A stretch of 21,285 nucleotides of DNA. Origin: Octopus sinensis (lineage: Eukaryota). The stretch spans positions 1 to 21,285 of the forward strand of contig NW_021823756.1 of NCBI RefSeq assembly GCF_006345805.1, in the 5' to 3' direction. Position numbers and translations under genes: made by a program. Below the pieces are notes generated by a model. That model saw nothing but the letters and a program-made list of their open reading frames with translations, did not search any database and was not told the origin of the DNA. The first letter of the stretch is position 1, and every line of letters starts with the position of its first letter. Positions 10,965-21,285 of this stretch are shown piece by piece.

Positions 10965-13928
10965 TCATGGAGGCTTTCTAGCAACTGATATTGGTGGCAT
11001 GAGAGAGTTCGATGCAGCTGCCCTCATCTGCCCCTCCTGCCGTGAAGTTGGTTCATCTGGGACACCTGACAGGAAGAGATCTAGCTTCATTTTAAAGACA
11101 TCTGTATCCACCCCATGCAGGTCTCTCAGGTTCTTCGGGAGGATATTGAAGAGCTGTGGGCCTCGGAAGCCCAGGCTATCACAGAATCTTGTCCTACATC
11201 TTGATGGCAGGTTTGGAGTCCTAGGCACCACGCAGTGGCGCCCATTTGGCATTTACGTAACTCTCGATGCCAAAGTTCAGGACACTTCCCTCCAGGATCT
11301 TCCAGATGTATATTATGGCATATCTTTCCCGCCTACGCTCCAGGGAATATAATTTTAATCTCTTGAGTCTTTCCCAGTAGCTTACATTCTGCATAGAGGC
11401 TATCTTCTTTGTGTAGCTTCGTTGGATCGCCTCAAGTTCTGTGATCAACTTGACACTGGATGGTGACCATAGCTGAGAGCAATAGTCAAAGCGGCTTAGG
11501 AAAAGTGTCTTCCAGAGGACCATCATGGTTTCTTGTTCTCTTGTTCTAAAGGTTCTATGAATCCATCCAGCCAGCCGTCTACATTTCATTGTCAGTTTAG
11601 CAACATGTACATGAAAGGTCGCGTCATCACTCATGTGAATACCCAGGTCACGCACTGATTGTGCCTCTGGGATTGCAATCCCTCCGGGTCCAGTGTATTC
11701 ATTGGGTATTGCATTCAGTTTTGCATGCTGATAGTATAAAGCTTGAAACTTTCCAGCATTGAACTGCATGCTATTCTTTTCGGCCCACTTGTATATTTCG
11801 TCAGCTCACATTGCAGGTGTTTAGTGTCCTCAGGGTTCTGTATTGCCTGTGAAACTTTTGTATCATCTGCATAACTTGTGATCGTGGCTCTCTGCGTGGC
11901 TGAGGGCATGTCTGAGAGGGCCATTATGAACAGCAGTGGTCCCAGAACAGTGCCCTGCGGAACACCGCTCACTATTTGTGTGTTGATGGAGGTGGCCCCA
12001 TTGGCTACTACCACCTGACTTCTATCCTTCAGAAAGTCATGAAGCCATTCTCCCAGTTTTCCAACTATGTTGAGATCACGCAGTTTGTGACATATTATTC
12101 CATGATCGACTCTATCAAGGGCCTTTGCAAAGTCGAGATATATCACTTCCACATTTGAGTGGTTGAGCAGCCGTTTCAGCACCCAGTCATAGTGTTGTAG
12201 GAGCTGAGTTAAACAGCTTCTCCCTGGTCGGAAACCATGTTGGGTGTCGGGCAGCAAGTCATTCTCTTCAAGGAAGGTGATCAGCTTCCTTCTGACTATT
12301 CGTTCCATGACCTTGCTGATGTGTGAGGTGAGAGAGATAGGTCTATAGTTCTTGGCTTCCGCTCTGCTACCTCCTTTGTGAATGGGGCATATTTTACCTT
12401 CCTTCAGTTTTCTTGGAAGTTTGCCAGCTGCAAGGAAGCTCTGAAAGAGGAACTGCAGTGGTCTTGCTAGGACTCTCTTACATGCTTTTAGGAGGATTGC
12501 CGGGAATCCATCGGGGCCAGTAGCTGAGTCTGTTTTCATTTCATCTATAGCCTTGGTTACATCGTCTTCCTTTATATCGATGTAATCTATCGTCGCCGCC
12601 TCTGATTTTATATCTGCAGTGGTAAAAAAGTCGGTTGGATGGTGATTTGGAGATGCCCAAGGGGTGGAGTGAAAACACTCTTGAATTGCTCATTCAGTAT
12701 TTCACTTACCCATCATTGGTTTTCCTGTAAGTGTGCCATCCTTTTCGAGGAGTGGCCCTATTCTACAGTGCACTGTAGCTGTTTCTTTGGCATACCTGTA
12801 GAAAGCTCTGGGGTTAGATTTTATGTTTCTATAGCCCAGGCTTCTTTGTCTGCTCTTTCCTTTTTCATGGGAGAGTTGCAGACATTTTTCGATTTCCAAC
12901 AGTTTTATTTTTAGGCGGGACTTTTCACTGCTTTCAATCTGTTTGTTTAGGCGATTTGAAAATTTCGTACGCCGTCTCATTAAAATTTTCCTCTCTCTGG
13001 GGATTTTGTTCTTGTGTACAGTGGCCTTTCTCTCTGGGACACATTTGTAGCATATGGCTTGCATTACAGACATGAATTGTTGAAGTTTCACGTCGATGTC
13101 TGGCGAGGAGAGACATTTAGGCCAGTTTTGTTTGAGGATCTCTTTCTCAATTTGTTTCCAGTTTGCCTTATTGTAGTTCAAGCTGGAAAGATTTTGAGGG
13201 TTTCTTGTAGGCTGCATGTCCGTGCTCTCTTTTGGCCCGTACATGGTCAGCTCTATCATGTTGTGATCCGAGAGTAGTGTCGGTGTCACTTTCACATTAT
13301 GGATGAGATCCATGTCATTTGTGAAGCAGAGATCCAGTGTGTTACCTGCCCTGGTTGGTTGGAGTATTACCTGCTCCATGTACAGGGTGTTGATGAGGTT
13401 CAGGAGGGACCTCGCCTGTCCTCGTTCACATCTTGTCATTCCTGGGAGAGAAAGGCCCTCGGGCCATCTGACATTGGGCAGATTGAAGTCTCCCATAAGA
13501 AGCACACCTATGTGTTGTTCTAATGTGGTTAGAATTTCTTCTATTTTTATAAGGCAGTCTTCAAACTTGCCCACATGGCTTGGGGCATCTGGAGGGCGAT
13601 ATGTAGCACACACAACTACATCAAGTTGCCTAATATGTACAATTAGTGTGTCACACACCGAGTTTGAGTATGACAAGAGGACCTGGGGTGTGAGGTCCAC
13701 GGATGTACATAGCAACACACCTCCATGACTCCTTTCTTTCCTCTCGGTCCGTAGTACAGCATACTGTGGTATGTGTAACTCCGCATCTGCTATGTCCGGT
13801 TTCAGGTGCGTTTCTGTAAGTGCTATGCATAAGGCTTGATTGCATGCAACAAAGTCTCTCAGGAACGGGATCTTTGTCCTGTTACTGTGTGTTTGCAGTC
13901 CTCTGATGTTCAGTAGGAGTATCGAGGT
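10965..13928 (-). pseudogene. LINE ORF2 (apurinic-like endonuclease + reverse transcriptase), broken by several frameshifts
   Basis: APE motifs LLLNIRGL, ALTETHL, HGGV, YRPP, MGDFN, LDLCFTN, SDH. RT motifs GPDG, NYRPISLTS, QHGFRPGRSC, YLDFAKALDRVDH, GVPQGTVLGPLLF, YADD, RDLG, YSLERRRERY. Pieces at 12702-13718, 11715-12539, 11221-11769 and 10965-11252. The indels may be sequencing errors. Confidence 0.95.
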
Positions 13929-14820
13929 GAGGTGTACGTGTTGCCGGCGGTGTCCATCCTGTTTCTGTTTGCTGTGGTGGTCTGGTATATAGTGGGTAGT
14001 CCCACCTGCGGGCTTGGGTTTGATGAAGCCAGGTCAGCTGCTGTACAATCTTTTGTGCCATGCACAAAAAAGATTGTTGCTCAGCAGCTGCTCTTTCGAC
14101 AACATCATGTTGGCTGTTTGTGGCGCGCACAACATCTGCGTACCTCCGCTTTGGGGCAGGTGGTGCGTGGTCCATCCCTTTTCTTTGTGTTGATGGTTTG
14201 TCCATCTGCCTCGTGTCTCTGTGGCAGGGTCCCCGATGTGCAAAGCGGCAGCCTGCACCTTCCTTTCCATGCCAGCAGGAACCTCTCAGGTAGAACATAC
14301 ACACCCGTGTGCGCTGTTTGGTTCCATCCTTTGCGGTTCCACTTCTATTCCTGGTTGTTTCACTCTTTGGTCCTGCTTCAGCTTTTTCTGTTCCTTTAGC
14401 TCTTCCAGTCCTTCTTTTAGTTCTTCTTCCTCCCTCTACCTCTTCACCGGGTTCTCCGTCTCCATGGCCCTTGCTGCCGGTTGGAGAACTTGCACCTGGG
14501 TTCACTTCCCGTGCAGGTTTCTCATTCAAAACCTCCTCCCGGGCGTCCACCAGGTGGGGGTGACTTCTTTCATCGTCTCCATTCTTGCCATCTTTGCCCC
14601 GCTCGTTCTCAAAGATGGCATCAAGTGCGCCAATGTGCGACCGTACAAGCGCATATGAGCGCAGGAATTCCCGTCTCTTTTGCTCCATCTGAGCCGCTGT
14701 CCTCTTGTAGCCTCTGCTCTTCAGCGCAGCCGCAATCACCTCGCTAGGGCTATCTCCGCCGGCGCACTCCCATGCTTGTACGAATAAATCCAGCTCGTCA
14801 GGTCTCCATGCTCTGGACAT
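13882..14820 (-). CDS. LINE ORF1 (312 aa): N-terminal trihelix Myb/SANT-like domain, charged disordered linker, CCCH zinc finger
   Basis: Intact ATG-TAA ORF directly upstream of and overlapping the APE start. Motifs WRPDELDLFVQAW...EVIAAALKSRGYKRTAAQMEQKRREFLRSY, CMFYLRGSCWHGKEGAGCRFAH (C-x7-C-x8-C-x3-H) and YADVV. Confidence 0.85.
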   Translation of the reverse strand: MSRAWRPDELDLFVQAWECAGGDSPSEVIAAALKSRGYKRTAAQMEQKRREFLRSYALVRSHIGALDAIFENERGKDGKNGDDERSHPHLVDAREEVLNEKPAREVNPGASSPTGSKGHGDGEPGEEVEGGRRTKRRTGRAKGTEKAEAGPKSETTRNRSGTAKDGTKQRTRVCMFYLRGSCWHGKEGAGCRFAHRGPCHRDTRQMDKPSTQRKGMDHAPPAPKRRYADVVRATNSQHDVVERAAAEQQSFLCMAQKIVQQLTWLHQTQARRWDYPLYTRPPQQTETGWTPPATRTPHLDTPTEHQRTANTQ

Positions 14821-14879
14821 GCTGGATAATCCGTCTATCCGTTTATCTATCTAATTATGTTCGAGAGAAGACAGGAAGA

Positions 14880-16865
14880 TATTAAGGCTAATTAGAAGAT
14901 AGAGTACTTGAAAAAGAAATATTAACAATATTAAAGTTTGTGTAAAAACGTTATTTGGGTAAAAACGTTATTTAATCTTAAGGCTAATTAGGGGATAGAG
15001 TATCTGAAAATGTATTAGCAATATTATATTATATTAGAGTGTGGATAAAAACGTTGTTTAATCTTAAGGCTAATTAGGAGATAGAGTATCTGAAAATATA
15101 TTAGCAATATTAATATTATATTAGAGTGTGGGTAAAAAACGTTATTTAATCTTAAGGCTAATTTGGAGATAGAGTATCTGAAAATATATTAGCAATATTA
15201 ATATTATATTAGAGTGTGGTAATATTAAATGTTATTAATTTAATCTTAAGGCTAATTAGAAGACAGAGTATCTGAAAAATTATATATACAATATTAAGCA
15301 ATATCAACCGTTATTTAATTTAATCTTAAGGCTAATTAGACGTTATTAATATTAAACGTTATTTAATTTAATCTTAAGGCTAATTAGAAGATAGAGTATC
15401 TGAAAATATATTAGCAATATTAATATTTATTAGAGTGTGGGTAAAAACGTTATTTAATCTTAAGGCTAATTAGGAGATAGAGTATCTGAAAATATATTAG
15501 CAATGTTTATTTATTAGAGTGTGGGTAATATTAAACGTTATTTAATTTAATCTTAAGGCTAATTAGAAGATAGAGTATCTGAAGAATTATTAACAATATT
15601 AAACAATATTAAACGTTTTTAATTTAATCTTAAGGCTATTAACAATAATTATTAACAATATTAAACATATTAAACGTTATTTAATTTAATCCTGAGGCTA
15701 ATTAACAATAATTATTAACAATATTAACAATATTAAACGTTATTTAATTTATCTTAAGGCTAATTAACAGTAATATTAACAATATTAAACGTTATTTAAT
15801 TTAATCCTAAGGCTAATTAACAATAATTATTAACAATATTAAACAATATATAAACGTTATTTAATTTAATCCTAAGGCTAATTAGACGTTATTAATATTA
15901 AACGTTATTAATTTAATCTTAAGGCTAATTAGAAGATAGAGTATCTGAAAAATTATTAACAATATTAAACGTTATTAATTTAATCTTAAGGCTAATTAAC
16001 ATAATAATTATTAACATATTAAACAATATTAAACGTTATTTAATTTAATCCAAGGCTAATTAACAATAATATTAACAATATTAAACAATATTAAACGTTA
16101 TTTAATTTAATCTTAAGGCTAATTAACAATAATTATTAACAATATTAAAACAATATTAAACGTTATTTAATTTAATCCTAAGGCTAATTTGACGGTATCA
16201 ATATTAAACGTTATTTAATTTAATCCTGAGGCTAATTAACAATAATTATTAACAATATTAAACAATATTAAACGTTATTTAATTTAATCTTAAGGCTAAT
16301 TAACAGTAATTATTAACAATATTAAACGTTATTTAATTTAATCCTAAGGCTAATTAACAATAATTATTAACAATATTAAACAATATTAAACGTTATTTAA
16401 TTTAATCCTAAGGCTAATTAGACGTTATTAATATTAAACGTTATTTAATTTAATCTTAAGGCTAATTAGAAGATAGAGTATCTGAAAAATTATTAACAAT
16501 ATTAAACGTTATTTAATTTAATCTTAAGGCTAATTAACAATAATTATTAACAATATTAAACAATATTAAACGTTATTTAATTTAATCCTAAGGCTAATTA
16601 ACAATAATTATTAACAATATTAAACAATATTAAACGTTATTTAATTTAATCTTAAGGCTAATTAACAATAATTATTAACAATATTAAAACAATATTAAAC
16701 GTTATTTATTTAATCCTAAGCTAATTAACAATAATATTAACAATATTAAACAATATTAAACGTTATTTAATTTAATCCTAAGGCTAATTTGACGGTATCA
16801 ATATTAAACGTTATTTAATTTAATCTTAAGGCTAATTAGAAGATAGAGTATCTGGAAAATTATTA
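14880..16865. repeat. AT-rich modular tandem array: 30 copies of the core TAATCYTAAGGCTAATT with alternative modules and a ~534-bp higher-order repeat
   Basis: Cores counted by eye. Modules begin GAAGATAGAGTATCTG, ACAATAATT, GACGTTATT or TGACGGTATC. The diagnostic CCTGAGG variant occurs at 15691 and 16225. Confidence 0.92.
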
Positions 16866-17311
16866 TATCGAGAACAGATATTGAAAATGTAAACAAACAA
16901 AATGACGATCGCAACTTTAACTAAGATGTGGGCCTAAGTGAAAGATAAAATAGAATAATAAATAAAATATGAATAGATGAAATTGATACTTAATCCAACA
17001 ATGTGGTCTGGATTATTTTTTTGGTTTACGGGATTTTTTTCAGGAGAGATGCTTCTTTTTTCTTTCTTGCAGGAGATAACTTGATTCAGTTATTTTTGCA
17101 CCATGTGCGTTTCGGCGAAAATGAAAATTACTGTGTATATGTATATATTTATATATATATTTTTTAAAATATTTTAACCAAAGTGTTGTAGTGATCTCTA
17201 TGACTTAGAGTTTTACTTTTGCAACTACAGTGGGTTATTTCGCCGATCTATGCAAACTTTTTCACAGAGAAAAGCAATAACGTCTCTCTCTGTTAAAAAC
17301 GACGGAACCGG

Positions 17312-17345
17312 ATATATATATATATATATATTATGTATATATATA

Positions 17346-17387
<42 letters not shown>

Positions 17388-17560
17388 ATATATTATATGT
17401 ATATATATAGATATGTATATATATATATAATGTATAATATATATTTATATATATATGTATATATATTGTATATATATGTATATATATATATGTATCTTGT
17501 ATTATATATATGTATATATATATTAGTATATATATATATATATATAGTATATATATATAT
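17312..17560. repeat. (TA)n microsatellite
   Basis: Directly visible. Confidence 0.95.
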
Positions 17561-18316
17561 GAGCTAACAATCGTACTGACTTTCATGGGAACATGTATTT
17601 TTGTGTTGAAACCTTTTGGATTAACTGGTGCTAGAGTGAGCCATATAGTGACCACTCTCTTATATATTTTGTAAAAATATTAAAATATATTATAAAATAT
17701 AATTATCCAGGTTCTCGGAGCACTAGGCCACTTGGTGTTGAATAGACATACTATTAAATTAGTATCTAATTCTCTCACCCTTATTAATTAATTATAATTA
17801 TGCTGCATTTATTTCTAAATGCAGTATTTGTTTTTCCGTGAAAGTTGGGCGCGCTGTTAGTTGGGGCATTTGAATTATAACGTCGGATGTAATCAATTGA
17901 ACCACACGTGTATTTATCGTTATGGTAAAATCTGGCGTGTGATTGAGTGGATTTCATCCAGATAGTTTTGGCTGACGAGCTACAAGTGGATTTTTTTGTA
18001 AGTAAAATACATTTATTCATTAATAGCGAAACAATTGTCCCAAAATAATCGTATTTTTGTTATTTTTTATTTGCCCTGTCCGTGTGAGCTAACAATCGTA
18101 CTGACTTTCATGGAAACATGTATTTTTGTGGTTGAACCTTTTGGATTAACTGGTGCTAGAGTGAGCCATATAGTGACCACTCTCTTATTTTATTTGTAAA
18201 AATATTATATATATTTATAAAATATAATTATCCAGGTTCTCGGAGCACTAGGCCACTTGGTGTTGAATAGACATACTATTAAATTAGTATCTAATTCTCT
18301 CACCTATTATTAATTA
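17561..18316 (+). mobile_element. Retrozyme-like / non-autonomous PLE-related element: 525-bp non-coding unit present in ~1.4 tandem copies
   Basis: Near-identical ~230-bp direct repeats at 17561-17790 and 18086-18316 flank a segment with an intact hammerhead. (TA)n on both sides. Confidence 0.75.
17965..18046 (+). ncRNA. Type I hammerhead ribozyme, fully canonical core
   Basis: GTTTTGG-CTGACGA-GCTA...TAGC-GAAA-C-AATT-G-TC-CCAAAAT: stem I 6 bp + GU, stem II 4 bp closed by G-C, palindromic stem III ACAATTGT, GUC triplet (predicted cut after 18039). Confidence 0.88.
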
Positions 18317-18339
18317 TGTATATTAATATATGTTATAGA

Positions 18340-19809: not shown

Positions 19810-21285
19810 TCTTTTACTCTTTTACTTGTTTCAGCCTCCGGCTGAGGCCATGCTGGGGCACCGCCCTAGTTGCTACCCTCTCTAAGTCCAGTTTGCTGTG
19901 GCTGGCCACTGATCTAAGTGAGAGTTTGTAGCTGCTGCCCTTAGTTTACCCTCGTACCTTGCAGTGGGTTCATCTGGGATCCCGGAAAGCAGCTTGTCTA
20001 GATGTTTTTTGAAAATGTCCACATCCGCATCATGTAGATCTCTTAGTTTTCTTGGCAGTTTGTTGAACAGCTGAGGGGCCCTGAACCCCAGGCTATTACA
20101 GTATCTGCTCCTTACCCTGGATGTGGAAGACGGGACCTTTGGCACCACACAGTGACGTCCTGCACGGGGATTGGAACAGCTCTCAATTCCAAAATCTGGT
20201 GCTAGTCCCTCCAGGATTTTCCATATGTATATCACTGCATATCTCTCTCGTCTTCGTTCCAAGGAGTACAAATTGAGTTCCCTAAGCCTCTCCCAATAGT
20301 TCTCTTCTTTCATGGTGGAAATCCTCTTGGTGAAATGTCTTTGGATTGTCTCAAGCTCTGTGGTTAGTTACACTATGCGGTGACCACAGTTGGGAGCAGT
20401 AGTCCAGGCGGCTTAGAACAAATGTCCTCCATAGTGTCAACATGGTCTCGGCAGTCTCTTGTCCGGAATGTCTCTCAGGATCCAGCCAGTGAGTCGTCTG
20501 CACATTGTCGCCACCTTCGCGATTGTGTGAAGAAAAAGATGCATCGTCACTCATGTCTATCCCCAGGTCCCGTATTGATTTCGATACTGGGATTTCGAGC
20601 CCTCCTGGACCAGTATTTTGTGTTGTAATGTATATGTGTTTACAGCTTGATATTGTAAGGCTTGAAATTTACCAGCATTAAATTGCATGTTGTTGTCTTC
20701 ACCCATTTGTATATGGCATCCAGATCTTGTTGTAAAAGGTCAGCATCAGCTGGGTTTTTGATTGCCTGTGCTACCTTTGTGTCATCAGCATAGATAGTGA
20801 GGGATGTGTTTGTGCTACCAAGGGCATGTCAGAGAGCGCTACAAAAACAGCAAGGGCCCAAGACTGTGCCTGTGGCACCCCGCTTGCATTGGTGTCTTTC
20901 CCGAGAGGGCTCCATTGGCTGCAACCATCTGGCTTCTGTCCTTCAGGAAGTCATGTATCCACTCACCTACTTTTCCTGTTATGCCGAGTCTGAGTAATTT
21001 GTGACATATCACTCCATGGTCGACTTTGTCAAAGGCCTTCGCAAAGTCGAGATATACCACATCCACCTGTGAGCGATCCAGTATTGTTTCAGTACCCAGT
21101 CGTAGTGTTTTGTAACAGCTGCGTAAGGCAGCTTCTTCTGGGCGAAAGCCATGCTGTGGTGTCAGTGAGACGGTTAGTTTTCTCGAGGAACGTGATCAGT
21201 TTTTTCTGATGATTCGTTCTATGACCTTACTTATGTGTGACGTCAGGGAGACTGGCCTGTAGTTTTTGGCCTCTGCTCTACTCCC
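19809..21285 (-). mobile_element. 3' portion of a related but distinct LINE family; runs off the window end
   Basis: YLDFAKAFDKVDHG, YADD (gtcatcagcata), LSRLDYCSQLWSP, YWERLRELNLYSLERRRERY and SGIPDEPT. 3' stem-loop at 19828-19865 and + strand tail (ACTCTTTT)2 next to (TA)n. Confidence 0.93.

Follow-up and report, generated by a model that had tools for sequence, protein, structure and literature searches.

Does the first open reading frame (ORF1) of a LINE retrotransposon from Octopus sinensis join a DNA-reading domain to an RNA-binding finger, and could such a protein choose where the element inserts? The role of ORF1 beyond mammalian L1 is a largely open question in the field, and where APE-type LINEs insert is commonly attributed to their endonuclease or to tethering by the host. 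A preliminary description of the locus, made from the DNA alone, proposed an ORF1 that combines a trihelix Myb/SANT-like domain with a CCCH zinc finger and that either guides insertion into (TA)n or binds the element's own upstream array. The window analyzed here is the whole 21-kb contig (21,285 nucleotides) from a 2.7-Gb genome.

Organization of the element

The window contains a full-length CR1 LINE of 6.4 kb on the minus strand that runs from 17311 to 10877 and is flanked at both ends by (TA)n arrays (Table 1). ORF1 adjoins an ORF2 with APE endonuclease and reverse transcriptase (RT), which bears out its designation as a LINE ORF1. The window ORF2 matches Pfam Exo_endo_phos_2 (E = 2e-12) and RVT_1 (E = 7e-25), and other copies have open ORF2 frames of 944 and 957 residues. 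The CR1 hallmarks of short tandem-repeat (AATC)n tails and 5'-truncated copies are present. Short peptides from the window RT led to clusters in the PMC10294476 alignment that, compared by eye, have almost the same RT letters. That study classifies elements by RT and places these octopus RT clusters in Jockey/CR1, as seen for all five matching clusters checked in its Table S7. By sequence, the RT is of the CR1 clade (Jockey superfamily). Close relatives with a named organism all come from Octopus or Argonauta.

Table 1. Coordinates of the element, its parts and related CR1 fragments in the window
Feature	Position	Strand	Remarks
(TA)n target array, 5' side of element	17312-17560	.	
5' UTR of element, 2.5 kb with tandem array	14821-17311	-	5' end identical in other full-length copies
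Tandem array within 5' UTR	14880-16850	-	28 core repeats; subfamily-specific
ORF1	13882-14820	-	312 aa in this copy; most copies 303 aa, stop ~13910
Myb/SANT-like (Myb_DNA-bind_4 type) predicted three-helix domain, aa 1-62	14635-14820	-	helix 3 extends to ~aa 75
CCCH zinc finger C-x7-C-x8-C-x3-H, aa 174-195	14236-14301	-	
Conserved C-terminal helix, aa 237-274	13999-14112	-	from conservation and model
ORF2, APE endonuclease and reverse transcriptase, CR1 clade	10965-13957	-	begins within ORF1 end; frameshifted here
3' tail (AATC)n	10877-10896	-	
(TA)n target array, 3' side of element	10727-10876	.	
Older family A CR1 3' fragment, 92%	4512-6386	-	TA array near 3' end
CR1 3' fragment, ~74% like family A	29-1022	+	TA array near 3' end
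Family C CR1 3' fragment, 97%	19820-21285	-	TA array near 3' end

The open frame of 312 codons is present as described, but its description as an intact 312-residue ORF1 did not hold, since this length stems from a single-nucleotide deletion and most copies are shorter. A protein search of the genome, with 127 of 4752 candidates scored, gave 128 matches. In the best 30 of these loci, the window copy included, ORF1 has 302-304 residues in 24 (303 in 19, 302 in four and 304 in one) and other lengths in six. The window copy lacks one base near 13939 that is present in six of eight compared copies. Because of this loss, its last 17 ORF1 residues are out of the usual frame and the ORF2 start codon at 13957 is uncoupled. 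In the 302-304-residue copies the ORF2 ATG lies ~49 nt before the ORF1 stop, and the ATG is kept in 30 of the 30 best loci. The window ORF2 has several further indels relative to other copies; the indels of the window copy may reflect decay or assembly error, with which they are equally compatible.

The database protein P0002 begins at an internal Met and omits the Myb domain, so annotation can hide this part of ORF1. P0002 was also the sole match in word-index searches of proteins, whether the query was ORF1 or an 11-row alignment, and the ESM Atlas gave no usable match for the ORF1 of family A or family D (see below).

The Myb/SANT-like domain

Residues 1-62 are predicted to form a divergent three-helix Myb/SANT fold with putative DNA-binding function. 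The W-x3-E-x3-F-x3-W start was found where it had been placed, and the W pattern arises in 0.04% of 20,000 protein shuffles. The window ORF1 scores E = 0.008 and 17 bits against Pfam Myb_DNA-bind_4 (PF13837), below the curated cut-off of 27 bits, and the homologous domains of family D score 31-43 bits, above it. An AlphaFold single-sequence model of residues 1-75 has three helices with a pLDDT of 79, and an alignment-based model of the full ORF1 agrees with these helices. The top-ranked structures in both Foldseek and VIA are Myb, GARP, SANT and GT-1 domains. Their scores are intermediate (every Foldseek E at or above 0.001; best Z 7.8), and Foldseek with the full-length ORF1 model returned nothing further. 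An HHalign comparison with five Myb_DNA-bind_4 domains from host proteins of this genome gave 96% and E = 4e-9.

A Myb-domain profile searched against 1.84 billion proteins gave 61 matches, sorted by eye into 26 ORF1-like proteins, 32 host multi-Myb proteins and three unrelated ones. All six host-type matches that were scanned are Myb_DNA-bind_4, and four of the 26 ORF1-like matches also have a complete finger. Ten ORF1-like matches were looked up, and the four with organism names are all Octopus; among records with a named organism, the Myb plus CCCH layout has so far been seen only in octopus. A PDB sequence search with the Myb profile returned only ribosomal S8 and coiled-coil rows, which were rejected as chance. 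The trihelix Myb/SANT assignment of the preliminary description is thus upheld by the model, the fold search, HHalign, the profile search and the family D Pfam scores, and as a matter of sequence comparison it is sound.

The octopus domain has in common with Myb_DNA-bind_4 domains (MSANTD host proteins, trihelix GT factors and PIF/Harbinger accessory proteins) the three-helix fold, W5, E9, W17, I29, L33 and the helix-3 R, Q and K. The helix-3 residues are kept in ORF1 rows as in host domains (R40 in 33/34, Q44 in 29/34 and K48 in 32/34), the first Trp is kept in 29/34 ORF1 rows and the domain is net basic in 13/13 rows. The two substituted aromatic positions reported earlier are seen in the alignment of ORF1 and host domains. 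At the second, families A-C have N, T or S and family D has Y, compared with Y, F or W in 35/37 host rows. Most ORF1 rows have K or R at the third, and families A-C have lost both positions relative to the host domains. In favor of DNA binding is the basic face of helix 3, which is conserved. The two lost aromatic positions count against such binding when set beside Arabidopsis HDP2, in which, according to the text of PMC5339849, W48R abolished DNA binding.

The octopus ORF1 differs from host and Harbinger Myb_DNA-bind_4 proteins in that it belongs to a retrotransposon and is fused to CCCH fingers. The pairing with a DDE transposase seen in PIF/Harbinger was not found; the neighbor is the APE-RT in families A, C and D. 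The element likely acquired its Myb domain by capture from a host gene of the MSANTD or Harbinger type.

The CCCH finger, the C-terminal helix and selection

The C-x7-C-x8-C-x3-H finger was confirmed at its described position, and a CCCH-spaced motif occurs in 0.12% of 20,000 protein shuffles. The window ORF1 matches Pfam zf-CCCH (E = 0.007, 16.7 bits; curated cut-off 20.5) and Torus (E = 4e-5), in both cases below the curated cut-off. The ligands C174, C182, C191 and H195 are invariant in 11/11 rows, and zf-CCCH matches 10 of 11 relatives at E ≤ 0.1. Families A-C have one finger and family D has four CCCH-like fingers. The finger likely binds RNA, a putative function, and the C-terminal helix has a putative oligomerization role. 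Taken together, the Myb plus CCCH architecture is in our judgment practically certain.

Pairwise dN/dS was calculated on 38 natural open copies, with 60 pairs sampled where more existed. The ratio among young copies is 0.82, as expected from decay after insertion. Between subfamilies the Myb ratio is 0.19 (95% CI 0.07-0.39) and 0.39 (0.19-0.78), that of the C-terminal helix is 0.11-0.12 and that of the linker is 0.58-0.68 (0.58-0.91 over all comparisons). The finger ratio is 0.15-0.16 against family B (one B copy) and 1.0-2.3 with wide intervals between family A subfamilies, where constraint is absent. These ratios show purifying selection on the Myb domain (0.19-0.39 in the dN/dS check that had been proposed), on the C-terminal helix and, against family B only, on the finger. 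Conservation of ORF1 among copies is borne out by the copy comparison, by dN/dS and by the alignment of relatives.

Families that carry the layout

The Myb plus CCCH layout occurs in four CR1 families (A-D) of this genome, down to ~47% RT identity: in family A including its older subfamilies, and in families B, C and D. The family C RT is 70% identical to that of family A, and the family D RT is ~47% identical to neighboring groups. In the RT tree, family D lies with weak support at the base of a group that includes relatives beyond families A-D. The layout either dates far back in this CR1 branch or moved from one branch to another. A Myb-domain tree built with a quick method on 77 columns groups families A-C with a support of 96 and leaves the placement of family D unresolved; the domain may have been captured once, which is compatible with this tree, as are several captures. 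Several family D copies have ORF2 frames of more than 1000 codons, and on this evidence family D may be recently active. A metagenome scan with the ORF2 alignment found 80 loci, nearly all distant and none with a Myb or finger match.

Family D, represented by loci L214, L216, L325, L329, L332 and L338, combines the Myb domain with four CCCH-like fingers and a glutamine-rich linker. Another locus, L044, has a tandem of three ORF1 pieces in a 6-kb stretch, and these pieces come from different subfamilies. Loci L319-L321 and L323, on small contigs, belong to another APE-type LINE family with an endonuclease ~25% like that of family A, which we take to be possibly I-group.

Insertion into TA arrays

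Junctions were scored under a strict rule (an 8-nt perfect TA run within 14 nt) and a relaxed rule that was chosen after the strict result was known, with backgrounds of 3.2% and 4.2%, respectively, from 20 arbitrary 10-kb stretches. Under the relaxed rule, the 3' junction lies in a TA array in 20/31 copies of family A (a set in which the copy of the window itself and one false internal anchor were left), 12/21 of family C (one pair with identical flanks retained) and 11/17 of family D, 43/69 in all. A second family A set, partly overlapping the first, gave 20/29. Full 5' ends lie in TA arrays in 9/12 family A and 6/8 family D copies under the same rule. Families A, C and D have three different 3' tails, and roughly one CR1 copy in three is inserted elsewhere than in a TA array. 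The TA bias of these CR1 insertions is real.

RTE elements, which have no Myb match in eight loci, served as control. The relaxed 3' count for RTE is 7/31 (two extra ends retained, one locus without an anchor), and the pooled CR1 count differs from it with p = 0.0004, in a comparison where the control differs from CR1 in both ORF1 and endonuclease and its copies are older (~95% vs ~98% identical). A Myb-less CR1 control was also sought, and none was found among 30 loci, 26 of which are family D and four of another LINE group.

The preferred explanation of the bias gives ORF1 the part of an adaptor. The CCCH finger would hold the element RNA, the particle would be anchored to AT-rich DNA through the Myb domain, and ORF2 would nick and prime from the tail, so that new copies would arise mostly in (TA)n arrays. 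We infer the RNA binding, the DNA binding, the oligomerization and the causal link between the Myb domain and the TA bias. That an ORF1 adaptor with putative Myb-DNA and finger-RNA contacts steers insertions to (TA)n is a tentative proposal with slightly less than an even chance of being right. In its more specific form, a captured, sequence-reading Myb/SANT domain would dock the RNA-protein particle on TA microsatellites; this would be ORF1-encoded targeting in an APE-type LINE and a driver of octopus TA-rich repeats, to which we assign a probability of roughly 0.35.

The bias may instead come from the CR1 endonuclease and tail-target pairing. In that case the Myb-like domain would have been retained for some broader function, for instance touching nucleic acid or chromatin without specificity, or binding a protein partner such as ORF2. 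APE domains determine target choice in many LINEs, and every tail has AT or TA steps able to pair with a nicked TA array. RTE likewise favors TA runs under the strict rule (11/31 vs the 3.2% background), and family A, at 15/31, does not differ from RTE there (p = 0.44). The 5' truncation points lie in TA in 4/11 family A and 5/21 RTE cases. The loss of the two aromatic positions also fits an endonuclease-driven bias. The relaxed counts point the other way: the background after an AT dinucleotide is 13.1%, and such AT microhomology is enough to account for the RTE count (p = 0.10) but is exceeded in every Myb-bearing family (p ≤ 2e-6, 3' ends). Conservation of the basic helix-3 residues is a further point for the Myb domain. 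We regard an endonuclease origin as the main alternative, somewhat less likely than the adaptor. Of the suggestion that ORF1 guides insertion into (TA)n, the insertion itself stands and a Myb role fits the data; the part assigned to ORF1 is where the endonuclease could equally be the cause.

The 5' UTR array

Alternatively, the ORF1 protein could bind its own 5' UTR and regulate the promoter, with the array multiplying the site. The array has 28 core repeats in the window copy and 3-36 in 20 other young copies. Harbinger Myb-type proteins recognize their own element, as the text of PMC5339849 describes, and here the UTR and the Myb domain diverge jointly. The first 200 nt of ORF1 (window 14620-14820) are 74-82% identical to those of four other loci (L031, L040, L043 and L048), compared with mostly 93-98% in ORF2. 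Fourfold sites behave alike, with 5-7 of 19-25 differing in the Myb region and 20/332, 35/270 and 19/188 in ORF2. This greater divergence of the Myb region at silent sites suggests that 5' modules were swapped between subfamilies on a common ORF2, and linkage alone accounts for the joint divergence. The amplified piece of the UTR varies between families and between subfamilies (window 14880-16850 compared with L074, L079, L045 and L031), the family D UTR is ~450 bp, unrelated and without an array, and helix 3 barely changes. An array that is specific to subfamilies and missing in one family makes array binding unlikely, and this half of the original suggestion is weakly supported. A 7-base word, perhaps a chance match, is common to the family A and family B arrays in opposite orientations.

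Very improbable is a domain that no longer binds DNA and forms with the finger an RNA-binding or chaperone module that stands in for the RRM found in other types of ORF1. In its favor, the RNA needs some other coat if no RRM, CCHC, PHD, esterase or Transposase_22 is detected, and families A-C have a single finger. Against it, family D keeps its Myb domain despite several fingers, and the nearest relatives and folds are DNA-binding domains.

Relation to known elements

R2-type elements have an N-terminal Myb domain in a single ORF with a restriction-like endonuclease. TRAS/SART, HeT-A/TART and TRE5-A use ORF1-based targeting through a Gag-like ORF1 and host proteins. The likeness to these systems is a DNA-binding or tethering module, here putative, that aids site choice; in contrast to them, the octopus element has its Myb domain in a separate ORF1 of an APE element. 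Telomeric Gag targeting is listed among the references of PMC4120745. A helix-turn-helix in a LINE ORF1 is described in the main text of PMC5203782 for the Coccomyxa L1/Zepp-like ORF1 with HTH_1, which differs from the octopus ORF1 in being a LysR-type HTH in an algal L1 clade with no CCCH finger reported there.

The octopus element has what CR1-clade LINEs have in common: two ORFs, APE and RT in ORF2, a short tandem-repeat tail and exchangeable ORF1 domains. ORF1 types I-V of CR1 were defined by Khazina and Weichenrieder and extended by Metcalfe and Casane (2014; PMC4120745), whose main text covers RRM, CCHC, PHD, Transposase_22 and esterase ORF1s across 448 Jockey-group elements and does not contain the words Myb, SANT or CCCH. 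None of the domains of types I-IV (RRM/CCHC, Transposase_22, PHD, esterase) was detected in the window ORF1 at Pfam E ≤ 10 or in 11 ORF1 relatives at E ≤ 0.1, and the full ORF1 model has no sheet domain (low confidence outside the helices). By the scheme as given in that main text, the octopus ORF1 would count as type V, unclassified. The main texts of PMC9115989, PMC11203168, PMC13343379 and PMC5203782 contain neither Myb nor CCCH in a term search. Full-text literature searches turned up no account of an ORF1 with Myb plus CCCH, nor of CR1s that target TA. Their scope did not extend to Repbase, Dfam or subscription journals, and an earlier catalogue entry is possible. Within that literature, the view that the combination had not been described is borne out, and this is a real and apparently undescribed type of ORF1 within a LINE clade already known to be modular.

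In this new ORF1 type, a retrotransposon has captured a domain of the kind found in transcription factors. Targeting can be tested directly here, since the Myb domain is small and separable and its CR1 family is abundant and has been spreading recently. Should the domain read (TA)n, it would offer a portable means of steering insertions to low-harm repeats; if it does not, the architecture is still new in a clade known for ORF1 domain shuffling.

Other repeats in the window

Two copies of a decayed element, 95% alike and without a Pfam match, lie at 9067-10720 and 2237-2893; by its translation we presume it to be Penelope-like. A short RTE 3' fragment lies at 7045-7245. A 239-bp direct duplication with 94% identity occupies 17560-17796 and 18085-18322.
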